NCBI GenBank assembly: GCA_036388595.1
Contig: DASVRN010000100.1
Location: 11,524-75,523 of the forward strand
Length of the DNA stretch: 64,000 nt
DNA from: Chloroflexia bacterium
Lineage (GTDB): Bacteria > Chloroflexota > Chloroflexia > QHBQ01 > JADMIH01
Direction of reading: 5' to 3'
Part shown: positions 3,088 through 48,339 of the stretch, piece by piece
Numbering within the stretch: position 1 is the stretch's first letter
Layout: every line of letters begins with the position of its first letter
The notes under the pieces: generated by a model
The model's input: the letters and a program-made list of their open reading frames with translations, nothing else
Database searches by the model: none
What the model was told of the DNA's origin: nothing
Program-made: the position numbers and the translations under genes

Positions 3088-3357
3088 GTTAGTACCTCTC
3101 TTGTTGTACCCGCCCGATGCTGCGAACATTAAGTAAAGAAAAAACTGAGAGGACGGGCGCTCTCAGCTCGGGTGCCTCTTTCGAGGTTGCACGTATTATA
3201 CGAAGAAGGATACAAATGTGCAAGAGTTTCCACAAACCCATTAGTACTACCATAAATAGACCAATAAGGTTTAATAGGTGGACAAGCGGCAGTAGCTTCA
3301 CGCACATGCTCTATTGGCTAGGTGGAGGCCACCTATACGGACCGGCAGGACTCTACT

Positions 3358-3512
3358 CCCCTCTGTCATCCTGAGCGTAGCGAAGGATCTCAAATGTTAC
3401 TCTTGCTCGTGCCCTAGACCTTCAGCACACGGAGCGTTGTTGCTCATTGTTCAGCAGCATCCATATACCACCTTCTTGAGATCCTTCGCTACGCTCAGGA
3501 TGACAGGGGGGA
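3358..3512. repeat. MITE-like palindromic element, copy 1 (arms gtcatcctgagcgtagcgaaggatc)
   Basis: Left arm cccctctgtcatcctgagcgtagcgaaggatctc and right arm gagatccttcgctacgctcaggatgacagggggg are exact reverse complements around a ~90-bp core. Confidence 0.75.
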
Positions 3513-3553
3513 GTGTGGTCGCTGGCTCTTCAGCAGAACGGATTGCGGGGCGT

Positions 3554-6574: not shown

Positions 6575-6712
6575 CCTTTGTCATTCTGAACGCAGTGAAG
6601 AATCTCGTCCTACAGCACCCAAGTTGCCCCTTTCTTTCACCCACTATCTCCATCAGAAAGGTGAAGCATCCCGGTGGAGGACGAGATTCTTCGCTGCGCT
6701 CAGAATGACAGG
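6575..6712. repeat. MITE-like palindromic element, copy 2 (arm variant gtcattctgaacgcagtgaagaatc)
   Basis: cctttgtcattctgaacgcagtgaagaatctcgtcc ... ggacgagattcttcgctgcgctcagaatgacaggg. Both arms carry the same variant. Confidence 0.75.
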
Positions 6713-7773: not shown

Positions 7774-8048
7774 GATTGAGGTCGTATTGCGGCGAGATGG
7801 ACGGCACCAACCAACACCCTTGATGATGGCTGAAACCTGCTGTGGAGTTGCGCTCCAGGCGCGCGACTCTCAAGGTGATAGCCGGGTCAAGGGGAACGGT
7901 GCCTTAGAGACTGAGGTCGGGGAATAGGAACGGGATAGTATAGCCGAGGTAGTATAACACAGCCTGCCGAATAGGGCCGTGCTGGTGTATCACCCTGCTG
8001 GACGTGTTTGGTTGAACACGGTTCAAGTAAGAAATTTGGAGCCAAACT

Positions 8049-8195
8049 CCCCTTTGTCATTCTGAACGCAGTGAAGAATCTCGTCCTCCATGCACGTGTT
8101 CCCCTTTTCCATTGGGGAAGTGCTCAGCAAAGAAAGGTGTAACTTGGGTGGTGAGGGACGAGATTCTTCACTGCGTTCAGAATGACAAAATGGGG
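8049..8195. repeat. MITE-like palindromic element, copy 3 (ttctgaacg variant)
   Basis: cccctttgtcattctgaacgcagtgaagaatctcgtcctcc ... ggacgagattcttcactgcgttcagaatgacaaaatgggg. Confidence 0.75.
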
Positions 8196-8249
8196 AGTGG
8201 TCCTTCCAATCGGACGCGCTGTGCGTTCGCTCTAAAGCATGGCTGGACG

Positions 8250-9182
8250 CTAGCGGAGGCGGGGAAGCACTTTGTTGATGAAACGTTCCAGGTTGTCGGT
8301 GCGGGGGTAGTCCATGAAGCGGACCATGAAGTGGTCGGCACCGGCATCGCGGAACGACTCTAGCTCGCGGGTCACTTCGTCCGGGTTGCCCGCTACGATG
8401 TGCAGGTGGTCCCAGCGGGTGGCCTGGGAGGAGTCTTCCTCCACGCTGACCCAGGTGACTTGCCCGTGCACGATGTCCTGGGGGTCGCGGCCTACGTCGG
8501 CGCAGTGCCGGGCCAGCACCGAGACCTTGTGGGCGAACACGTCCACCGGAGCGACGTCGGCGCACCACCAGTCGCCGTACTCAGCTACGAGCTTGAGCAG
8601 TTTCTTCTCGCCCATGCCGCCTATGCAGAGTGGTATCCACTCGTCAGGGCGGGGGGAGCTATAGGCGTTGTCGATGCGGTAGTGCTTGCCGTGGAAGGTG
8701 GCGGGGCTGTCGTTCCACAGCGCCTTGATGATCTTAATCGCCTCTTCGGTCTGTTCTACACGCTCGTCTGGAGGTGCGAACCTGTAACCGAATTCGTGGT
8801 GCTCGCCCGGATTGTTGCCCGCGCCTATACCCAGGATGAATTTGCCCTCGGTGAGCAGGAACATGTTGGTCGCCATCTTGGAGAGGAGCGCGGGGTTGCG
8901 GAATGCCTGTCCGCACACCATCGTGCCGTAGGTGAGGCCGGCATGCCGCCCCGCCAGCCAGGCCATATTGGTGAAGCATTCGAGGTGGGCCTTCTCTCCC
9001 CAGCCCATGTGGTCCTCCACCCAGATGGTGTCGAATCCACCCTCCCGCGCGATCTCGATGTGCTGCTCGTTGGCCTCAATCATCTGGCGAGCGAGGCTGA
9101 TATCTCGGGAGTCCACTCCCTCAGGCGTATTGATGAAAGCCGGATGCATAATCCAGCCGAAGGTCGGGTTGTCGTTAGCCAA
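8250..9182 (-). CDS. LLM-class (luciferase-like) flavin/F420-dependent oxidoreductase
   Basis: 310 aa, luciferase-like TIM-barrel pattern (IWVEDHMGWGE..., ...ILGIGAGNNPGEHHEFGY..., ...HFMVRFMD). Confidence 0.8.
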   Translation of the reverse strand: MANDNPTFGWIMHPAFINTPEGVDSRDISLARQMIEANEQHIEIAREGGFDTIWVEDHMGWGEKAHLECFTNMAWLAGRHAGLTYGTMVCGQAFRNPALLSKMATNMFLLTEGKFILGIGAGNNPGEHHEFGYRFAPPDERVEQTEEAIKIIKALWNDSPATFHGKHYRIDNAYSSPRPDEWIPLCIGGMGEKKLLKLVAEYGDWWCADVAPVDVFAHKVSVLARHCADVGRDPQDIVHGQVTWVSVEEDSSQATRWDHLHIVAGNPDEVTRELESFRDAGADHFMVRFMDYPRTDNLERFINKVLPRLR

Positions 9183-9247
9183 GATAATTCCTCCTAAAAT
9201 ATCGGTACGAACCTCTACAGCAGCAAGCGGGGTGCCAAGAGAGTAAT

Positions 9248-9412
9248 GAGGACTGAGGACTGAGGACTGAGGACTGAGTGTTTACTTGCGAGCTCCTCAG
9301 CCTCATCGCTAGAATTGCCTTGCATCTGATGGGAGTGTGGTGCATAATAGCGAAACGGCGTGTGAGGCTGTGAATGGCCGAGCTACTCAGTCCTCAGTCC
9401 TCAGTCCTCATC
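9248..9412. repeat. heptamer-arm hairpin element: (GAGGACT)n ... (CAGTCCT)n
   Basis: gaggactgaggactgaggactgag at 9248-9277 and its complement tcagtcctcagtcctcagtcctca at 9385-9412, about 105 bp apart. It sits in the divergent LLM/MTase intergenic region. Confidence 0.8.
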
Positions 9413-9434
9413 ACTGGTCAGAAAGGCCGGCTCG

Positions 9435-10505
9435 ATGCGCTACCTGGGTAACAAAGACAGCTTGCTGCCCTTCATCGACGAAGTGCTTGCTATGCACGGA
9501 GTGAAAAGCACGCGGGACAAACCGCTCTGCGTGTGCGACCCTTTCACCGGCACCACCGCCGTCGCCCGCCACCTCAAACGGCTCGAGTGGCAGACCGTCA
9601 CGGGCGACCTGATGACCTACTCCTACGCGCTGCAACACGCGTATATCGCCCTGAACGAAGCCCCGGTATTCGCCAACCTGGTGAACGCGGGCGTGCTAGA
9701 CGGCAGCGTGAACCTCCCGGTGCCCCTCCATCGCGTCATCGCGCACCTGAACAACCTGCGCGGCGTGGAGGGGTTCTTTTATTGGAATTACTCGCCCGAC
9801 GGGCCGGAGGGCAGGCGCTATTTCACGTCCGGGAACGCCCTGCGCATCGACGCTATCAGGAACACCATCAACTGGTGGTGGGAGCGGGGTTGGCTGATCG
9901 AATCGGAGCGATTCCTGCTGACGGCGGCACTGATCGAGGCGGTATCGAGGGTGGCGAACATCGCGGGCACCTATGCGGCGTTCCTCAAGCGGTGGGACTC
10001 GCGGGCGCGCAAGCCGCTGATGCTGGCGGTGCCCCAGGTGGTGCATAGCGCCTACGAGCACAGCATCAACCTGGCCGACGCCAACGAGTTGGTGCCCGAA
10101 ACGGAGTGCGACCTGCTGTACGTGGACCCCCCGTACAACACGCGGCAATACTGCACGAACTACCACCTGCTTGAGACGCTGGCGGTGGGCGATGAGCCTG
10201 AGACGCGGGGTGTCGCGGGGCTACGCACCGACGCCGAGGACAAGAGGTCGGCCTACTCCAAGACCGGGGCCGCAGAAGAAGCGTTATCGAAGCTGGTGAC
10301 AGGCTCCAAGGCGAAATGGGTGCTGGTCAGCTACAACAGCGAGGGCGTGATCCCGCACGACAAGATTGTGGACATCCTGTCTCAGCGCGGCACCGTGGAG
10401 ATTTACGCCTGCGAGTACCGCCGCTTCCGCTCCGACGCCGACGGTGAAAACCGCCAGTACAAGCCTAACACTACGGTGCAGGAGATGCTGTACTGGGTGG
10501 GGTGA
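9435..10505 (+). CDS. D12-class (Dam/FokI-like) N6-adenine DNA methyltransferase
   Basis: N-terminal MRYLGNKDSLLPFI (compare M.FokI MRFIGSKVNLL), motif I CDPFTGTTAV, and later LLYVDPPYNTRQY (motif IV). This is alpha-class order X-I-TRD-IV. Confidence 0.85.
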   Translation: MRYLGNKDSLLPFIDEVLAMHGVKSTRDKPLCVCDPFTGTTAVARHLKRLEWQTVTGDLMTYSYALQHAYIALNEAPVFANLVNAGVLDGSVNLPVPLHRVIAHLNNLRGVEGFFYWNYSPDGPEGRRYFTSGNALRIDAIRNTINWWWERGWLIESERFLLTAALIEAVSRVANIAGTYAAFLKRWDSRARKPLMLAVPQVVHSAYEHSINLADANELVPETECDLLYVDPPYNTRQYCTNYHLLETLAVGDEPETRGVAGLRTDAEDKRSAYSKTGAAEEALSKLVTGSKAKWVLVSYNSEGVIPHDKIVDILSQRGTVEIYACEYRRFRSDADGENRQYKPNTTVQEMLYWVG

Positions 10506-10512
10506 GGCGGAG

Positions 10513-10770
10513 TTCTTAATTCTTAATTCTTAATGTTCAATTCTTAATTGAGGTTTGGAGTAAATAGCAGATTTTGTGTGCGGGCACGATGCGTCGTGCC
10601 CATATGTGTCTGTATGGGTGGGAAACAGTAGCCATATGTGTGCATTCTACTTCGTACTGGGAGGCGGTCGTGCCGCAACGTAAGCTTGATACCTTGCATG
10701 GTGGCAACCGTGCCCCGCAACGAGAAACACAGCCAATTAAGAATTCAAAATTAAGAATTAAGAATTCTCC
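10513..10770. repeat. heptamer-arm hairpin element: (TTAATTC)n ... (GAATTAA)n
   Basis: ttcttaattcttaattcttaatgttcaattcttaattg at 10513-10550 and aattaagaattcaaaattaagaattaagaattc at 10736-10770. It lies between the two MTase genes. The right arm is wrongly included in track ORF 10574..11608. Confidence 0.75.
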
Positions 10771-10825
10771 CCCGCCGTCCGCCCATCCTCGTAACAGGTT
10801 GAACAACCTGACGGGGAGTGAGTGG

Positions 10826-11608
10826 GTGCATTTCCTGTCGTCCGTGGAGGCTACCGCGTTCCCAACTACCGGGCCGCAGTCGTACGGGCACAATTTGCGG
10901 CGAGTCCACCCATCACCCAAGCCGCCCCAGTTGATGCGGCGGCTGGTGGAGTTCTTTACGAAGGAGGGGGAATGGGTGCTTGACCCTTTTATGGGGGTTG
11001 GGGGCACACTGCTGGGGTGCTCGCTGGCGAACCGGGACGCGGTGGGGTTGGACCTATCTCCTGAGTACGTAGAGGTCTACAAGCAGGTGGCACGACAAGA
11101 GGGGTTGGGGACACAAACGGCGCTGATTACGGACGCGCGACGGATGTTGGAGCACCCGGAGGTAGCGGATCGCCTGTTCGACATGGTGCTGACCGACCCT
11201 CCCTATGGGGATATGATGCGGCGTCCGCAGAGCGGGGAGAAGAAGAAAAAGACGGGCCTGTCCTCGCCCACGCCGTTCACGGGCGACCCCGCCGACCTGG
11301 GCAACCTCACCTATGAGACATTCCTGGACGAGTTGGTAGGCATCATGGGCAAGTCGCTGGCGGTGCTCAAACCCTCGGGCTATCTAGTGCTGTTTGCCAA
11401 GGACTTCCAGCCCACCGAGCACCACCACAACCTGCTCCATGCCGACATCGTGGTGCGCCTCTCCAGGCTGCCGGAATTGGCCTACCGTGGCTGCAAAATC
11501 TGGTACGACCAGACCCCGCGCCTGTACCCATTCGGCTATCCCTACCGCTTCGTAGCCAACCAACTGCACCAGTACATCCTCATCTTCCAAAAAGCCAGCA
11601 ACCCTTAG
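10826..11608 (+). CDS. DNA methyltransferase (N6_N4_Mtase/PF01555-like, permuted motif order)
   Basis: VHPSPKPPQLMRRLVEFFTKEGEWVLDPFMGVGGTLLGCSLANRDAVGLDLSPEYVEV matches the HPTxKP + DPFxGSGTT catalytic-domain block, but it is followed (not preceded) by MVLTDPPYGDMM. A GTG start at 10826 with GGAGTGAG upstream is proposed; the repeat-encoded N-terminus of the track ORF is rejected. Confidence 0.65.
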   Translation: MHFLSSVEATAFPTTGPQSYGHNLRRVHPSPKPPQLMRRLVEFFTKEGEWVLDPFMGVGGTLLGCSLANRDAVGLDLSPEYVEVYKQVARQEGLGTQTALITDARRMLEHPEVADRLFDMVLTDPPYGDMMRRPQSGEKKKKTGLSSPTPFTGDPADLGNLTYETFLDELVGIMGKSLAVLKPSGYLVLFAKDFQPTEHHHNLLHADIVVRLSRLPELAYRGCKIWYDQTPRLYPFGYPYRFVANQLHQYILIFQKASNP

Positions 11609-11747
11609 GGGGCAATGAGTAAGAGACGAAACCGCAAAGGCGCAAAGAGCGCAAAGGACGCGCAAAGAGCATGAGGGTACGGGGCATACAAGAGCATGAT
11701 GCCCGTACCCTCGTCGGTGGCCCCGGTATTGGGCCCATAGAACCAAG

Positions 11748-11896
11748 CCCCTTCTGTCATCCTGAGCGCAGCGAAGGATCTCAAGAAGGTGAGTAGGGAT
11801 GCTGTTGAACGGCACGTACCAGGGTGCTGAACCTTCACCACAAGGGGTAAGGCAGCATCCTAGATCCTTCGCTACGCTCAGGATGACAGGGTGGGG
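11748..11896. repeat. MITE-like palindromic element, copy 4 (tcctgagcg variant)
   Basis: ccttctgtcatcctgagcgcagcgaaggatctc ... gatccttcgctacgctcaggatgacagggtgggg. The core shares gtagggatgctgttgaac with the solo arm at 6496. Confidence 0.75.
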
Positions 11897-12074
11897 CTTG
11901 GCCCTGCAAGAGCGGCATGGGGGCTACCCACGAGGGCAGGATACAGAGAGCGCCTACACACTCCAAACCATTATCTACTTAGTGTTACCTCTGAGCGTCC
12001 TTTGCGCTCTTTGCCCCTTTGCGGTTTCGTCTCTTGGGCAAGCCCACCGTCCGGTTTGTTGCAGGGGATACATT

Positions 12075-12083
12075 TGTTATACT
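12075..12083 (+). promoter_or_regulatory. extended -10 promoter (TGtTATACT) for the RHH/PIN operon
   Basis: ttTGtTATACT at 12075-12083. The AGGAGG RBS at 12098-12103 is followed by GTG 12111. Confidence 0.4.
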
Positions 12084-12110
12084 AGGGGGCTATAAACCAG
12101 GAGGATATGA

Positions 12111-12377
12111 GTGAGTAATTATCTAATTGACGTGCATCTCTATATGGAAAAGGGGATGTACGAGCGGCTGGTGGACCGGGCGCAGGAGCTTGGGACACCT
12201 TTGAGCGCGGTGGTACGTGAGGCGGTGGTGGAGTACTTCGCCAACATCCCCGAGGTGTCCGACCGCAGCGGCGATATGCCCCAACCCGAAGACGCCATCT
12301 GGCAGATACCCACATTGAGCCAGTCATTCGGGGCGCTCAACGTGCCTGGAATGGGCGGCAACGGAGGTAATCGCTGA
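12111..12377 (+). CDS. ribbon-helix-helix (CopG/VapB-like) antitoxin-like protein
   Basis: 88 aa, GTG start. ...ERLVDRAQELGTPLSAVVREAVVEYF is the RHH pattern. Its stop overlaps the downstream ATG (TGATG). Confidence 0.6.
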   Translation: MSNYLIDVHLYMEKGMYERLVDRAQELGTPLSAVVREAVVEYFANIPEVSDRSGDMPQPEDAIWQIPTLSQSFGALNVPGMGGNGGNR

Positions 12378-12814
12378 TGCGACGCCAGCACAGGCTTATT
12401 TTTGTGAACACCAGCGGCTGGCTGGCCCTCTACAACCCCAACGACCCCAATCACGCCGCCGCCCGCGCCCTCTGGGACGACCTGCGCAACCAGCCGGTGC
12501 GCTTCGTGACCACCGACTACGTGCTGGACCAGGTGTTCACCGCCATGAAGGTGTTCGGCTCTCTGGATGCGGCCCAGGCGATTTACACGGTGGTCAACAA
12601 CACCTCGCTGTTGCGCTTCTTCATGACCGACAGCGTCATCTTCGAGCGGGCCTGGAAGATCTTCGTGGACGACGAGCACCCCCAGTTCACCTTCACCGAC
12701 TGCATCAACTACGCCGTTATCCAGTACCTCGGCGCCGACGAGGTGTTCACCTTCGACCCCAACTTCACCGCGCCAGGGTTGATTAGAATTCCGTCTTCAG
12801 GTGCCAGGGGGTAG
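12377..12814 (+). CDS. PIN-domain (VapC-like) protein
   Basis: 145 aa, RLIFVNTSGWLAL ... TFTDCINYAVIQ ... FTFDPNF. This is a PIN fold, but the first conserved acidic residue reads Asn (FVNTSG). Confidence 0.7.
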   Translation: MRRQHRLIFVNTSGWLALYNPNDPNHAAARALWDDLRNQPVRFVTTDYVLDQVFTAMKVFGSLDAAQAIYTVVNNTSLLRFFMTDSVIFERAWKIFVDDEHPQFTFTDCINYAVIQYLGADEVFTFDPNFTAPGLIRIPSSGARG

Positions 12815-13160
12815 GGCTGAAACGTGAAACGTGAAACGTGATGCGGCCTGTGTTATTTGGTGCGTGGATTCGAGGGTGCTTCTATAGCAGCAGAACCCCA
12901 CTCCCTTCTGTCATCCTGAGCGTAGCGAAGGATCAGGTGAGTAGGCGAGAGTCCTCAACGTTGTGGATGATGCAGGTACGAGCAGCAGGGCACCTCAACA
13001 TCAAGGGTCAAGAACGGGCTACTGATCCTTCGCTACGCTCAGGATGACAAAGGGGAGCAAGGGTTCCTTACATGAAACAGGGTCGCCTCGTGAGTTGAGG
13101 CGACCCTGTTTCTTTTTGCGTACTAAGCTTCCCCTACCGCATCACGTTTCACGTTTCAGC
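12812..13160. repeat. composite element: (GAAACGT)n / (CACGTTT)n hairpin arms enclosing MITE-like copy 5 (12897-13057)
   Basis: gaaacgtgaaacgtgaaacgtgatgcgg at 12812-12840 and catcacgtttcacgtttcag at 13135-13160. Inside lies cccttctgtcatcctgagcgtagcgaaggatcagg ... ctgatccttcgctacgctcaggatgacaaagggga. Confidence 0.75.
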
Positions 13161-14166
13161 CACCGATGTGCGACATCTCCACCTTCGACCGCCTCACCGT
13201 CTCTAGGGTGCGCAGGTCGGAGTAGCGGTCGGTGCGGCGACGCCAGACTTTGGCGACGAAGGCTGATAGCTCCTCGTCAGTTTTGCCGGAGCGGAGGAGG
13301 GCGCGCAGGTCGTGGCCGTAGTTGCCGAAGAGGCAGGTGAAGAGTTGGCCCTCCGGCGAAAGGCGGGCGCGGGTGCAGGTGCCGCAGAAGGGTTGGGTGA
13401 TGGAGGAGATGATACCGATTTCGCCGCCGCCATCGAGGTAGCGGTAGCGGGAGGCCACTTCGCCCGTGTAGTTCGGCTCGGCGGGTTCGATGGGCATCTC
13501 GGCGTTGATGACGCGCACGATCTCAGAGGCGGGCACCACGTCGTCCATGCGCCAGCCATTGGTGGTGCCCACGTCCATGTACTCGATGAAGCGCAGAATG
13601 TAGCCGGTGCCGTGGAAGTAGCGGGCCATGGGCAGGATGCTGCTTTCGTTCACGCCACGCTGGACCACCATGTTGATCTTGATCGGCCACAGCCCGGCTT
13701 CCCGGGCGGCCTCAAGCCCTTCCAGCACGCGCCCCACCGGGAAGTCCACATCGTTCATCGACCGGAACACCGCATCGTCTAGCGAGTCGAGGCTGACCGT
13801 GAGGCGCTTCAGCCCGGCCTCCTTCAACGCAACGGCCTTCTTCGTGAGGAGCGCGCCGTTGGTGGTAAGAGTGAGGTCCTTGAGGCCATCCAGCGAGGCG
13901 AGCATGGCGATCAGCTTCTCCAGGTCGCGCCGCACCAACGGCTCCCCGCCCGTGATGCGCAGCTTCTCGACGCCGAGGCCGATGAAGACATGGGCCAGGC
14001 GGGTAATCTCCTCGAAGGTCAGCAGGTCGGCGCTGGGCAGGAACTGGAAGTCGCGCCCGAACACCTCCTTGGGCATGCAGTAGGTGCAGCGGAAATTGCA
14101 CCTATCGGTCACCGAGATGCGCAGGTCGTGGAGGGGCCTATTCAGTTGGTCAGTGGGCTTTTGCAT
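13156..14166 (-). CDS. moaA: GTP 3',8-cyclase MoaA (radical SAM)
   Basis: [18 protein letters not shown]...GGEPLVRRD. Start placed at the internal Met (ATG 14166, MQKPTDQL). The track N-terminus translates the GGATTTT repeat. Confidence 0.9.
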
Positions 14167-15039: not shown

Positions 15040-15293
15040 GTGATTGCATACAGGGCTGTGACAAAGTCGATGGGTTGCAACCTATAGGACCAGGCACCAC
15101 CCTTGTCATTTCGAACGCAGTGAGAAATCTCGTCCTCCAGCACCCAAAGCCAACCTTTATCCAACTATCCAGCATTATAACAAGATAGTCTCACAAGAAA
15201 CGGCCACAGCCCGGTGAAGGACGAGACTTCTCACTGCGTTCGAAATGACAGGGCGGTGCCTGGTCTCATAATTCGACTTTGTCACAGCCCTGG
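15040..15293. repeat. MITE-like palindromic element, copy 6 (tttcgaacg variant, extended ~60-bp terminal inverted repeats)
   Basis: Inner arms cccttgtcatttcgaacgcagtgagaaatctcgtcc / ggacgagacttctcactgcgttcgaaatgacaggg. Outer arms cagggctgtgacaaagtcga...gaccaggcacc and ggtgcctggtc...tcgactttgtcacagccctg. Confidence 0.75.
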
Positions 15294-19579: not shown

Positions 19580-19733
19580 CCCCGTGTCATCCTGAGCGCA
19601 GCGAAGGATCTCAGATGCTGCCTTTATCCCTGTGCTGAACCCTCCGCGTCATGTTCGCTACCATTCAGCCGTATCCCTGTTCACCTTCTTGAGATCCTTC
19701 GCTACGCTCAGGATGACAGGGGCACTCTTGGTC
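19580..19733. repeat. MITE-like palindromic element, copy 7 (tcctgagcg variant)
   Basis: cccccgtgtcatcctgagcgcagcgaaggatctcagatgctgcctttatccctgtgctgaaccctccgcg...gagatccttcgctacgctcaggatgacaggggc. The core is nearly identical to copy 8. Confidence 0.75.
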
Positions 19734-21735: not shown

Positions 21736-21792
21736 TGTGTATTTCGCTTGGCCCTGGTATCCAACATTGCATCTCCCTGGCGAATACCAGGA

Positions 21793-21958
21793 CCAACGCT
21801 CCCCTTTGTCATCCTGAGCGTAGCGAAGGATCTCAGATGCTGCCTTTATCCCTGTGCTGAACCCTCCGCGCCATGTTCGCTACCATTCAACAGCCTCCCT
21901 ACTCACCTTCTTGAGATTCTTCGCTACGCTCAGGATGACAAAGGGGAGCGTTGGTACT
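21793..21958. repeat. MITE-like palindromic element, copy 8 (tcctgagcg variant, longer TIRs)
   Basis: accaacgctcccctttgtcatcctgagcgtagcgaaggatctc...gattcttcgctacgctcaggatgacaaaggggagcgttggt. The core is over 90% identical to copy 7. Confidence 0.75.
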
Positions 21959-23678: not shown

Positions 23679-23720
23679 AACCCATCTCACAAACAAGAAT
23701 GAGGAGATGAGCACCCAAAG

Positions 23721-23868
23721 CCCCTACCTTGTCATTTCGAACGAAGTGAGAAATCTCGTCCCTCACCACCCAAATAGCACCTTTCCTTCAGCAACAGAAA
23801 CCCATAAGGAAAAGGTGACATCTCGGTGTAGGACGAGATTTCTCACTTCGTTCGAAATGACAAGGGGA
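23721..23868. repeat. MITE-like palindromic element, copy 9 (tttcgaacg variant)
   Basis: ccccctaccttgtcatttcgaacgaagtgagaaatctcgtcc ... ggacgagatttctcacttcgttcgaaatgacaagggg. Confidence 0.75.
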
Positions 23869-23935
23869 GGATTTTGTCGCCAGCAATCGGAGCTGCTATT
23901 TAATAGATGGCTTCTAGCCGATGGACCTGGAATAG

Positions 23936-36097: not shown

Positions 36098-36185
36098 CGA
36101 TAGTGGACGATGGACGATGGGTCCTGAGCCTGCGAAGGATGGACGATGGGTCCTGAGCCTGCGAAGGATGGACGATGGGTGATAT
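36098..36185. repeat. (GGACGAT)n array with 35-bp tandem duplication
   Basis: ggacgatagtggacgatggacgatgg, then [gtcctgagcctgcgaaggatggacgatgg] x2. Confidence 0.7.
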
Positions 36186-37504: not shown

Positions 37505-38010
37505 CAGAGTGGTTAGTGGTTAGTTGTTAGTTGTTAGTTGTTAGTTGTTAGTTGTTAGTTGTTAGTGCGGTTGGCCGTTCGGCATGTTCTAGCGGCTAAT
37601 AGTGATACATGCTTTGGAGCCGGAAGGTTCAAAGTGGAGAGCAGGCACATACAATACTGTATATCCTATTACTAACCCAGGGTACGAGCATCGTCGGCAG
37701 GAGAGAGGCAGAAAAGAGTAGACGCATTATATGTTATTGGGTCCATAGGAGACGCCCGTCGATTAAAATCGAGGGCTACACCTTGCGAAGTCTGCCACAG
37801 GGCAGACTGATTCATCTAGCAGCATCTATGAGAACTTAATGAGATGCTCCAGTCCCGCAGGGACTTTACAAAGTGTAGCCCTCGATTTCAATCGACGGGC
37901 GTCCCCTGCCGAGAAGGACCTCTCCCTACCACCAACCACCAACCACCAACCACCAACCACCAACCACCAACCACTAACCACTAACCACTAACCACTAACC
38001 ACTAACCACT
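37505..38010. repeat. large composite element: (TTAGTTG)n left arm, imperfect (CCAACCA)n(CTAACCA)n right arm, enclosing a 32-bp inverted repeat pair
   Basis: gttagttgttagttgttag... at 37511-37570 and accaaccacc...ctaaccactaaccactaacc at 37925-38010. Inner IR ggagacgcccgtcgattaaaatcgagggctacacc (37748-37782) / ggtgtagccctcgatttcaatcgacgggcgtcccc (37870-37904). Confidence 0.7.
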
Positions 38011-45819: not shown

Positions 45820-48339
45820 CTATGACGTATTTTGACTGCTTAGCCTTATGGCGTCTTCAAGCCACTTTCCTGCAGTAGTTGTCTTTGGATGTTCAGGCCC
45901 TAGGTACTTGTGAAATGTTCTGTACGCACTTGTCAGGCATCCCTGTGCCTCTTGAAAATTGCCTCCTTCTAGTAGGGCTACACCCAAGTTGGCCAGCCAT
46001 GTAGCTGCTTCTGGGTGGTCTGGACCATATACTGCTTCGCCAATAGCAAATGCTCTCTCGAAGTTAGAACGTGCCCCTTGCAGGTCTCCAAGTTCTCGTA
46101 GTACGGTGCCTAACATGCTTAATCTCACTGCCACATTTGGATGATTAGGACCGTACACGGACTTATCAATGGCAAGTGCCCTCTCTAAGTTGGAGCGTGC
46201 CCCTTGCAGGTCTCCAAGTGCTCGTAGTATAGCGCCCAAGTTATTTAAGCCTACAGCTACATGAGGGTGATCAGGGCCATGCACAGACTTGATTATAGCA
46301 AGTGCTCTCTCGAAGTTGGAGCGTGCCCCTTGCAGGTCTCCAAGTTCTCGTAGTACGGTACCTAAGTTATTCAACCTTGCAGCCACAGTAGGATGGTCTG
46401 GACCATACATAGACTTACCTATAGCAAGGGCTCTCTCGTGGTTGGAGCGTGCCCCTTGTAAGTCTCCAAGTACTCGTAGTACCGTGCCTAAGTTATTCAA
46501 CCGTATAGCCACTGTAGGATGGTCTGGACCATACACTGCTTCGCCAATCACTATTGCTCTTTCAAGCTGGTCTCTTGCCTCCTTGTACTGTGCTCTATGC
46601 TCCAGATATAAGCCCACCTCGTTCAAAACATGCGATAGTAATTCACCAATTCCCTTAGTAGTAGGTATTTGTAAGTCAAAAAAGGAGATCACTGCTAACG
46701 CGTGCGGCAACACACTAGCTGCAATAGGCCATGTACCCATGCCGTCTATTCTATAGCTGAAGCCATCTCCCACTACACGTAAGGCTGCCTCTATCCACGT
46801 CTGCCTCGCATCAGGTGACAGTTTATCGCGTACTACAGCTTGTACCAGACGGTGGATTGATATACTGCGTCTATCTTTGTCTACCTCAACCAGCGAATAC
46901 TTGCCTAACTCTCCAACTACGTCATCCAACTTAAGAGGTTCCGATACTGCTTTCTTGAGGCTCTCCGGCAAGTGGTCAGCCCCTGCTACGATCATGTCTA
47001 ACGGAATGTCCTCAGGAGCGAAGAAAGCGCACAGATTCAGCAGGTCGGCTGCCGCCGGTGAGTGCCCGCGCACGGCTTGGAATGTTAGCTCCCAGGTAGC
47101 AGCTATGGTGGCTGGATAATCGTCCGAAGGGATGAATGCCTTATCTCTGTACTCCTGGAACAAGGGCAGATAGTCGGCTAGCGATTTCTGTTTCTGCTCC
47201 ATGTATGCACCTGCCTGTGCCAGGGCTATGGGCAGAAAACCCAACCCCTCCGCGAGTTTGCCTGCTGTGGCTCGGTCCTTCTCCCCCGTGCGTTTCAGCA
47301 GGAAATCAACGGCTTCCTCCGGCTCCAGCACTTCTACAACTACGGGTTGAGCGTATTGCCGCCAGTTCGGGTTGCGGGACGTAATGAGCACATGCCCGGT
47401 GCCGACTTGAGGCAGATACTTCGCTATTTGCTTGCCATCCTCCGCATTGTCAAACACAAGCAGCCACCTGGTGTTCTCCCTCAGCCAGCGTAAGACTGCC
47501 TTAACATCAGCATCCTGGTCCCTGGTGTCTAGCTGAGATATTCCCAGTTCGCCCGCTAAAGCTGCAAAATCGGCTGCGAGCGTGGTAGGTTCCTCAGCAC
47601 GCACCCACAACACAGCATCATATTCGCCTGCATAACGGTAGGCATATTCATTGGCAAGCTGTGTCTTGCCAACACCACCCAACCCGTGTAGGGCTTGAGG
47701 CTGCGTCAAGGCGGCGTGCTGGCCGGAGGTAAGTTTCTCAAGTAGGTCTTGAAGCAATTCCTCACGCCCGGTGAAATTGAGGTTGCGGGAGTGTGGCACC
47801 GTCCAAACCCTCGGGAGGGCGGGCCTCGGGGGTAGGGGCGGCGTAGTGCTGGAACGCGTCGCAGAACCACTTTGCCTGCTTCGCCTTAGTGCCTCCGCTA
47901 CTTTCGCTATTCCTTGTGCGACATTGGTAAAGGCTTCATCTATATCCGGCCAACTCCTGACAGGCTTCCCATCGGTTGGTAAGAAGTTTAGCTTTCCGAA
48001 TATCGCACCCTTCCAGTACACGGAACGTATGATGATGGGAATAACACTCGCTTTGCGGGCCTCGTGCCGTTCCATAGCTCGCTTCAACTCCACGCTGGAG
48101 CAGTAACGGGAGGCAAGGAAGTCAGAACTGATAAGAAGGAGTATTATATCTGCGCTATTAAGGTGCTCATCTATCTCGTGCTCCCACTCTGTGCCCGCGC
48201 TGATGTTGCGGTCGTGCCAATTACTGATCACACCGTTGGTTCTCAATATGCTAAGATGCTTTTCAAGTTTGTCGCGAAGGTCCTCATCCTCATGTGCATA
48301 TGAGTAGAACACCTCCAATGGCTTTTCTGCGTCAGACAT
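45820..48339 (-). CDS. TIR - NB-ARC (STAND P-loop NTPase) - TPR-repeat protein
   Basis: Start MSDAEKPLEVFYSYAHEDEDL (ATG 48339). TIR-like domain (...SADIILLLISSDFLASRYCSSVELKRAMERH...). Walker A GLGGVGKTQLANEYAYRY. NB-ARC-like region (LLVFDNAED...ITSRN). About 7 near-identical 42-aa TPR units (ERALAIGKSMYGPDHPTVAARLNNLGTVLRELGDLQGARSNF). Codon usage is visibly AT-richer than that of neighbouring genes. Confidence 0.85.
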   Translation of the reverse strand: MSDAEKPLEVFYSYAHEDEDLRDKLEKHLSILRTNGVISNWHDRNISAGTEWEHEIDEHLNSADIILLLISSDFLASRYCSSVELKRAMERHEARKASVIPIIIRSVYWKGAIFGKLNFLPTDGKPVRSWPDIDEAFTNVAQGIAKVAEALRRSRQSGSATRSSTTPPLPPRPALPRVWTVPHSRNLNFTGREELLQDLLEKLTSGQHAALTQPQALHGLGGVGKTQLANEYAYRYAGEYDAVLWVRAEEPTTLAADFAALAGELGISQLDTRDQDADVKAVLRWLRENTRWLLVFDNAEDGKQIAKYLPQVGTGHVLITSRNPNWRQYAQPVVVEVLEPEEAVDFLLKRTGEKDRATAGKLAEGLGFLPIALAQAGAYMEQKQKSLADYLPLFQEYRDKAFIPSDDYPATIAATWELTFQAVRGHSPAAADLLNLCAFFAPEDIPLDMIVAGADHLPESLKKAVSEPLKLDDVVGELGKYSLVEVDKDRRSISIHRLVQAVVRDKLSPDARQTWIEAALRVVGDGFSYRIDGMGTWPIAASVLPHALAVISFFDLQIPTTKGIGELLSHVLNEVGLYLEHRAQYKEARDQLERAIVIGEAVYGPDHPTVAIRLNNLGTVLRVLGDLQGARSNHERALAIGKSMYGPDHPTVAARLNNLGTVLRELGDLQGARSNFERALAIIKSVHGPDHPHVAVGLNNLGAILRALGDLQGARSNLERALAIDKSVYGPNHPNVAVRLSMLGTVLRELGDLQGARSNFERAFAIGEAVYGPDHPEAATWLANLGVALLEGGNFQEAQGCLTSAYRTFHKYLGPEHPKTTTAGKWLEDAIRLSSQNTS

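Follow-up and report, generated by a model that had tools for sequence, protein, structure and literature searches.

FokI is a Type IIS system made up of the nuclease R.FokI and the methylase M.FokI, with the site GGATG (9/13). M.FokI is a protein of 647 amino acids (aa) with two domains, of which the N-terminal one modifies GGATG and the C-terminal one CATCC, according to what Sugisaki et al. reportedly found in 1989. In other Type IIS systems for GGATG, those of the BstF5I and BtsCI/BseGI type, we take it that separate strand-specific methylases stand beside a nuclease that is not FokI-like. We have analyzed a stretch of 64,000 nucleotides (nt) from a Chloroflexia bacterium (assembly GCA_036388595.1, contig DASVRN010000100.1, positions 11,524 to 75,523, forward strand), referred to here as the window, in which two adjacent genes, M1 and M2, encode putative DNA methylases. 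The use of two methylase activities for the two strands of an asymmetric site is a principle described in PMC12898733, and the concept of orphan DNA methylases conserved within a lineage can be found in PMC7544214. The locus analyzed here probably goes back to a FokI-family Type IIS system whose nuclease was lost long ago and whose two methylases are kept as an orphan pair.

The product of M1 is a D12, or alpha-class, enzyme. It begins with MRYLGNKDSLLPFI and matches the Pfam family PF02086 (MethyltransfD12) with an E-value of 1.7e-28 and 100.5 bits, well above the gathering cut-off of 22. Its FxGT motif for binding of S-adenosylmethionine (SAM), DPFTGTTAV at aa 35-43, lies ahead of the recognition region and of the DPPY motif at aa 231-234, which is the alpha-class order. 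A first-pass annotation of this DNA, made from the letters alone, had named it a FokI-like D12 methylase with that order, and the Pfam score and motif positions bear this out. Among the PADLOC profiles for Type II methylases, PDLC03257 matches M1 at 1.9e-77. PDLC03287, a two-domain profile of 646 positions, does so at 1.6e-76 over positions 1-328, its N-terminal half, and in this M1 resembles M.FokI. M1 has 906 homologues at E <= 1e-3; no match to it was found among PDB sequences. The likeness to FokI has limits, since the methylases are split here and fused in M.FokI, and the second methylase is not another D12-type domain but an enzyme related to PF01555 in which motif I precedes motif IV. 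Of the 55 PADLOC matches of M2, the 25 listed do not include PDLC03287.

M2 matches PF01555 with an E-value of 3.7e-24 and 86.4 bits, above the gathering cut-off of 26.7, and this match is split in two stretches. The better stretch pairs positions 144-220 of the 221-position profile, at its C-terminal end, with residues 84-170 of the protein read from the mechanically called open reading frame (ORF), 10574-11608 on the forward strand, and it lies before DPPYG. An alignment to the beta-class structure 2zie likewise falls into two pieces in swapped order. Because the Pfam stretches and the 2zie pieces are both swapped, the permutation of motifs, already proposed in the first-pass annotation, is real. 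In the numbering of the 312-aa protein the motifs are HPSPKPPQL (aa 80-88), DPFMGVGGT (aa 105-113) and DPPYG (aa 176-180). The beta class is defined by the linear order motif IV (DPPY), target recognition domain, motif I (FxGxG) (PMC7544214); in M2 motif I precedes DPPY, and by this definition M2 is not a beta-class enzyme. We describe its motif order directly and apply no delta, epsilon or zeta class name. With the beta-class PF01555 enzymes (TTHA0409, the protein of 2zie; M.RsrI; M.MboIIA; CcrM) it shares DPPY and the HPxxKP...DPFxGxG block, the latter being its best sequence match, but it differs from them in that motif I precedes motif IV and its structural model shows no separate recognition domain. 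That model, made with AlphaFold2, has a mean predicted local distance difference test (pLDDT) score of 80.5, and its N-terminal ~32 aa, which include the translated right arm of a hairpin described below, are predicted to be disordered. The PADLOC MTase_II profile PDLC03391 matches M2 over its full length (4.7e-84). Homologues of M2 number 4481 at E <= 1e-3, and Trm11 is the name given to some of them in certain databases.

The history proposed for the pair rests on its relatives. A scan of species-representative genomes with an alignment of M2 gave 302 relatives, of which 80 loci were kept; these and other fetched loci, numbered L003 to L089 below, were grouped by tblastn. The group closest to the window, group A, consists of 21 species-level Chloroflexia metagenome-assembled genomes (MAGs) in which M1 (67-99% identity) and M2 (69-95%) are adjacent and no nuclease is present. 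Besides these species representatives, further assemblies also have the pair. Both ORFs are intact in all loci of this group whose contigs cover both. These loci commonly share with the window a ribbon-helix-helix (RHH)/PIN gene pair and moaA/moaE/moaD, and this neighborhood persists around M1 and M2 in relatives down to about 70% identity.

Nucleases appear among more distant relatives. In group C, M1 and M2 are followed directly by a protein of 549-589 aa with all four FokI Pfam domains; these loci come from Chloroflexota (L035), Armatimonadaceae, Zixibacteria, Aerophobetes, Ignavibacterium and unclassified genomes. A FokI-like nuclease directly follows the methylase pair in at least eight loci (L005, L006, L035, L038, L076, L080, L081 and L082), in agreement with the first-pass annotation, which had suggested methylases of a Type IIS system left behind after loss of the nuclease. 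The full length of the L005 nuclease aligns with FokI (PDB 1FOK, E 1e-139), and the protein also matches the PADLOC REase_II profile at 5e-149. Identity of the nuclease-linked proteins to those of the window is 37-51% for M1 and 48-63% for M2, across several phyla. The closest complete system, L035, lies within the Chloroflexota (M1 51%, M2 63%), and its nuclease too has all four FokI domains. Other loci appear partly or wholly stripped: L073 has only a 163-aa remnant of the C-terminus of a FokI-like nuclease, and L075 and L029 have none.

A second family of nucleases, 453-467 aa long and matched by the PADLOC REase_II profile PDLC03445 (E 1.6e-63), is found beside homologues of M1 and M2 in L061, L079, L088 and the Streptococcus prophage Javan105; we presume that it may be of the BstF5I kind. 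In L067 and L088 a single protein, of 679 and 628 aa respectively, comprises both M1 and M2. Taken together, the nuclease-linked pairs, the remnant and the fusions among these relatives show M1 and M2 to be a working unit of FokI-like Type IIS restriction-modification systems. The Javan105 locus (L089, 2779-7930) encodes an M1-like protein (33%), a second Dam-like methylase and an M2-like protein (47%) with an N-terminal extension of ~100 aa; on its opposite strand lies the 463-aa protein of the PDLC03445 family, 43-46% identical to the nucleases of L079 and L088.

The remaining group, B, comprises 41 fetched loci that carry M2 alone (50-64% identity), from Chloroflexus, Chloroploca, Oscillochloris, Roseiflexaceae, Kouleothrix, Herpetosiphonaceae and Thermomicrobiales, among others. 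M2 is directly downstream of carA, the gene for the small chain of carbamoyl-phosphate synthase, in 20 of the 41, which are Chloroflexales loci among L043-L086; this is the arrangement in Chloroflexaceae and Oscillochloridaceae. The two genes overlap by 4 nt in L043 (4886-6849), which suggests that M2 is there in an operon with a housekeeping gene. In Chloroflexus, M2 also borders a defence locus: a Druantia DruA-like gene (PADLOC E 5.5e-97) lies ~1.8 kb downstream of M2 in L057 (7887-10180) and likewise in L049, L050 and L059.

Within the window, tblastn with the nucleases of L005, L006 and L007 and with other neighbor proteins found nothing at E <= 10. With the nucleases of L035 and L005 as queries, neither a nuclease nor a remnant of one was found at E <= 0.5 in the window and 30 related loci (383 kb together). 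The claim that this locus has no restriction endonuclease holds for the 64 kb at hand and, among the relatives, for those 30 loci. A complete FokI-family system has a linked FokI-like nuclease with domains D1-D3 and a cleavage domain, and the window contains none. The place that the nuclease gene holds in complete systems is taken here by a nested hairpin of 415 bp, with the RHH/PIN pair next to it.

The methylase genes themselves are under strong purifying selection. Compared with 13 loci of group A, the ratio of nonsynonymous to synonymous substitution rates (dN/dS) is 0.03-0.16 for M1 and 0.06-0.17 for the core of M2, at dS values up to >1, and is similar to that of neighboring genes. The catalytic motifs are invariant in alignments that include the nuclease-linked homologues. 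When M2 is compared with those homologues, its segments outside the Rossmann fold are about as conserved as the core, which suggests that its specificity has been retained. The pair thus combines the marks of orphan methylases, namely no linked nuclease, conserved presence and synteny, and purifying selection. We regard M1 and M2, on these comparisons, as retained orphans and not as decaying relics; the first-pass annotation had offered orphan regulators as an alternative, and the two proposals are compatible.

In the window GGATG/CATCC occurs 149 times against 146 expected (observed/expected, O/E, 1.02; rank 298 of 512 words), with strand counts of 85 against 80 and 64 against 66, that is, with no bias beyond expectation. 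This absence of avoidance is what is expected with no active cognate nuclease. A literature search for Chloroflexi methylomes or for an orphan GGATG methylase found nothing relevant. The most under-represented 5-mers of the window are GAATC/GATTC (O/E 0.50, z -5.8) and GCGCC/GGCGC (O/E 0.73, z -8.1), a depletion for which either composition or other restriction systems may be responsible.

The proposed scheme is as follows. M1, a Dam-like alpha-class enzyme resembling the N-terminal domain of M.FokI, and M2, a small enzyme related to PF01555 with its SAM-binding half first, would both be active, each transferring a methyl group from SAM to the N6 position of adenine (m6A) on one strand of an asymmetric site. 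An N6-adenine target is suggested by the presence of DPPY in both. Since M1 resembles the N-terminal domain of M.FokI, it would take GGATG and M2 would take CATCC, so that by analogy with FokI both strands would be modified. Between M1 and M2, which have the same direction, a long hairpin would have been inserted, and M2 would start within it, at GTG 10670. After the ancient loss of the nuclease gene, the two would now form a chromosomal orphan pair kept intact by selection in a Chloroflexia clade, perhaps for epigenetic marking of the host or as a standing protection against incoming isospecific nucleases.

Several points weigh against this scheme. Our view of the genome is 64 kb, which leaves room for an unlinked nuclease. 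The target site and base are extrapolated from nucleases only 34-50% identical to each other or to FokI, and M1 is only 37-51% identical to the nuclease-linked M1 proteins. Part of the putative recognition region of M1 (aa 81-100) is poorly conserved, and its specificity may have drifted. The neighbor-joining tree that points to nuclease loss is unbootstrapped and midpoint-rooted. Finally, in a Foldseek search with the M2 model the closest structures were all methylases of canonical order, most of them RNA methylases, at template modeling (TM) scores of 0.43-0.47. Foldseek follows sequence order, and permuted beta-class enzymes are beyond its reach; for this reason we do not take these matches as evidence of RNA function.

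The same data bear on other explanations. In a reverse history, M2, alone or with M1, would be an ancestral methylase of the Chloroflexia that was later recruited with nucleases into mobile systems of other phyla. The spread of the 41 M2-only loci across Chloroflexota lineages would suit such a history, as would the position of 20 of them behind carA and an M2 tree that within the Chloroflexales roughly follows taxonomy. In the unbootstrapped neighbor-joining tree of M2, however, nuclease-linked pairs from many phyla are basal, and the nuclease-linked L035 branches within those Chloroflexota sequences that are nearest to the window; stages of decay are also seen elsewhere (the remnant in L073, no nuclease in L075 and L029). 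We therefore consider the reverse history unlikely. Active restriction, with a cognate nuclease elsewhere in the genome or in the guise of an unrecognized neighbor such as the PIN protein, appears to us quite improbable, despite the limited stretch of genome in view and the RHH/PIN pair located immediately after M2 here as well as in many group A loci. In all complete relatives found, restriction and modification genes are adjacent, and GGATG/CATCC is not avoided here. The PIN protein is a VapC-type match whose partner's stop overlaps the PIN start, a typical toxin-antitoxin arrangement, and the RHH/PIN pair does not keep its place, being 4-5 kb off in L021, L022, L024 and L026 and absent within 6 kb of the methylases in L003, L017, L027 and L028.

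It seems very unlikely that M2 is an RNA methyltransferase of the Trm11/TrmN/RlmL type, which forms N2-methylguanosine (m2G), standing beside a solitary Dam-like M1. M2 does share the linear motif order of these enzymes (PF01170, TIGR01177), aligns collinearly with an archaeal Trm11 (5e71, E 2e-11), has RNA methylases as its top structural matches and Trm11 as the name of some homologues, and scores 22.2 bits against PF01170, just below the cut-off of 22.3. Against TIGR01177, in contrast, it reaches 33.4 bits where the cut-off is 316.55, so that it falls below both family cut-offs, and neither THUMP nor any other RNA-binding domain is found among its Pfam matches. Its full-length match to PDLC03391, its best sequence match in the HPxxKP...DPFxGxG block, its occurrence across many phyla next to M1 and a restriction nuclease, and its fusion to M1 in L067 and L088 all speak for restriction-modification. 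That the pair is decaying neutrally, as a functionless leftover of a dead restriction system, is scarcely credible: the nuclease is gone and gene callers disagree on the start of M2, but intact ORFs in 21 species-level genomes, low dN/dS at dS up to >1 and invariant catalytic motifs are not what decay would leave. Least credible of all is a recent mobile cassette, close to the accessory block bounded by repeats that the first-pass annotation had seen here. Hairpins do flank and split the pair, and elsewhere members of the family are carried by mobile DNA, Streptococcus prophages among them. Like hairpins, however, occur at about 11-15 sites of the window, the GC content of M1 and M2 (0.58-0.60) is the same as that of the flanks, the synteny with moaA/moaE/moaD and RHH/PIN extends across relatives with dS above 1, and neither an integrase nor a transposase was found adjacent to the pair among window ORFs and Pfam matches. 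This part of the earlier description is accordingly dropped.

If, as we favor, the pair is what remains of a FokI-family system, present-day genomes hold three stages: complete M1-M2-nuclease loci, the nuclease-less pair in about 21 Chloroflexia species, and M2 alone in the Chloroflexales. Both protein families were already among the PADLOC profiles of Type II methylases, and the locus would be a further case of methylases outliving their restriction enzyme. It invites comparison with Dam of Escherichia coli and CcrM of Caulobacter, which likewise have no cognate nuclease, are chromosomal and syntenic, and are under strong purifying selection. Those are single enzymes with palindromic sites that have been shown to act in replication, repair or the cell cycle, whereas here there are two putative strand-specific enzymes for a presumably asymmetric site. 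Were the retained enzymes to have a host role, this would be a conserved methylation of asymmetric sites, unlike the palindromic Dam and CcrM paradigms. We would suggest, tentatively, that the M2-type enzyme may have become a domesticated, lineage-wide epigenetic methylase of the Chloroflexia, like Dam or CcrM, acting on one strand of a non-palindromic site. In that event Chloroflexales with M2 alone would carry permanently strand-asymmetric marks while the clade of the window would mark both strands, and the role would be one for the host, for instance in gene regulation, in the timing of replication or in telling the strands apart, and not in defence.

Table 1. Features of the methylase locus and its immediate surroundings (window coordinates).
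Feature	Coordinates	Strand	Description	Basis
Heptamer hairpin upstream of M1	9242..9415	.	TGAGGAC/CTCAGTC arms; between M1 and a divergent luciferase-like gene	Inverted repeat and Tandem Repeats Finder (TRF)
M1	9435..10505	+	356 aa; D12/alpha-class N6-adenine DNA methyltransferase (predicted)	PF02086 and PADLOC profiles
M1-M2 junction hairpin	10501..10776	.	Heptamer arms 10513-10550 (TTCTTAA) and 10734-10766 (AATTAAG)	Inverted-repeat and tandem-repeat mapping, RNA fold
Probable M2 ribosome-binding site and start	10660..10672	+	GGAGG 10660-10664 and GTG start 10670	Sequence; relatives
M2	10670..11608	+	312 aa from GTG 10670; PF01555-related amino-methyltransferase (predicted), motif order X-I...IV	PF01555, PADLOC, 2zie alignment
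Hairpin 3' of M2	11621..12035	.	CGCAAAG-type arms 11621-11667 and 11989-12035; nested palindrome with arms 11754-11781 and 11862-11889	
Probable ribbon-helix-helix antitoxin (VapB-like)	12111..12377	+	88 aa	Weak PDB matches only
PIN-domain (VapC-like) toxin	12377..12814	+	145 aa	PF01850, 33.5 bits (cut-off 23.6)

The start of M2 required some attention (Table 1). The mechanical ORF opens at TTG 10574, and gene callers give products of 224, 258-260 or about 310 aa for the window gene or near-identical homologues. The conserved core of the protein opens at HPRNRLNNLTGSEW, at about nt 10787 (aa 40), and in 30 aligned homologues conservation sets in with (H/D)PRN(R/K)LN(D/N)LTGxEW. Because conservation begins there, the short called starts remove conserved sequence. 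A spacer of 5 nt separates GGAGG from GTG 10670, seven close relatives (L008-L013 and L085) have GGAGG and an ATG at the equivalent position, and called homologues of M2 open with MP(R/Q)RKLD. The most likely start of M2 is the GTG at 10670, giving the 312-aa protein.

This start lies within the hairpin at the M1-M2 junction. The first-pass annotation had described hairpin elements containing GAATTC that separate the two genes; the hairpin is real, with GAATTC at 10741 and 10762 in its right arm, but it is no simple separator: the likely start of M2 falls in its loop, and the right arm is part of the coding sequence, where it reads IKNSKLRIKNS. The arms are 94% complementary, and the predicted RNA fold (-117 kcal/mol, z -5.6) has a stem that spans from the stop codon of M1 to codons of M2. 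Besides the ribosome-binding site and start codon of M2, the 183-nt loop contains a small GC hairpin, GGGCACGATGCGTCGTGCCC. The stem is found in 7 close relatives, where its pairs are almost invariant and an analysis of covariation is uninformative. The heptamer tract of the right arm, 4.6 units long, lies in the 5' coding region of M2, where the gain or loss of a single unit would put M2 out of frame. Phase variation through this tract finds no support, as the number of repeats in the coding arm is constant in the window, L008-L013 and L085; among the same loci the non-coding left arm has 4 to 5 units. In L016, and probably also in L021 and L023, M2 starts at or overlaps the stop codon of M1 and there is no hairpin loop, so that the loop-borne start of the window looks like the result of a later hairpin insertion.

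The orthologous M1-M2 junctions of related species carry different heptamers: TTCTTAA, AAAATCC, GGTTCAA, AACTCAA, GTGATAA, ATCCGCA and ATCTGAA. In the relatives' loci that have both arms, the arms are complementary.

The hairpin upstream of M1 contains a 30-nt inverted repeat, 97% complementary, in which TRF finds a period of 7 with 4.6 and 3.6 copies. It is an intergenic element of a type found throughout the window and is not specific to this locus. About 11-15 sites have tandem heptamer arrays, and at 11 of them the array is paired with its own reverse complement, namely at 9247/9386, 10513/10735, 11633/11995, 12818/13142, 14159/14213, 17028/17129, 26753/26805, 37508/37928, 39306/39357, 40873/40948 and 42008/42048. 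These arrays have 3-12 copies (with a period of 8-9 at 11633), the partner lies 10-400 nt off, and four further arrays are without a mapped partner. The heptamer varies from site to site, and the paired arrays could form long hairpins. The only related literature found concerns heptamer satellites in Chloroflexus aurantiacus (PMC6749651).

The first-pass annotation had also placed an RHH/PIN pair downstream of M2. The PIN protein is confirmed by its Pfam match, while the 88-aa RHH candidate has no Pfam match and resembles PDB proteins only weakly (AvtR, E 0.04; ORF56, E 0.79). The stop codon of this putative antitoxin overlaps the start codon of the PIN gene at 12377, and the two are co-conserved in relatives.

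A second family of palindromic elements, with arms TGTCATCCTGAGCG..GAAGGATC, is nested in the loops of several heptamer hairpins. Its members are 130-170 bp long, with arms of the form TGTCAT(C/T)CTGA(G/A)CG..GAAGGATCT, and copies lie at 3355-3514, 6579-6710, 8042-8200, 11754-11889, 12901-13057, 15101-15253, 19581-19722, 21789-21958 and 23716-23876. The copies at 11754 and 12901 are nested in heptamer-hairpin loops, as is a palindrome of another kind at 37747. Five copies of the family have CATCC and GGATG in opposite arms. Some reading frames run through the palindromes and yield spurious peptides, such as CHPERSEGS and FATLRMT. An Rfam scan of 9000-13300 gave only spurious matches below threshold, to a microRNA model and a long non-coding RNA model. 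Elsewhere in the window, a 126-bp tandem repeat at 46016-46548 (4.2 copies, 79% matches) falls in the region where the GC content of the window is lowest (0.49), and a perfect 29-bp tandem repeat of 2.5 copies is located at 36109-36180.

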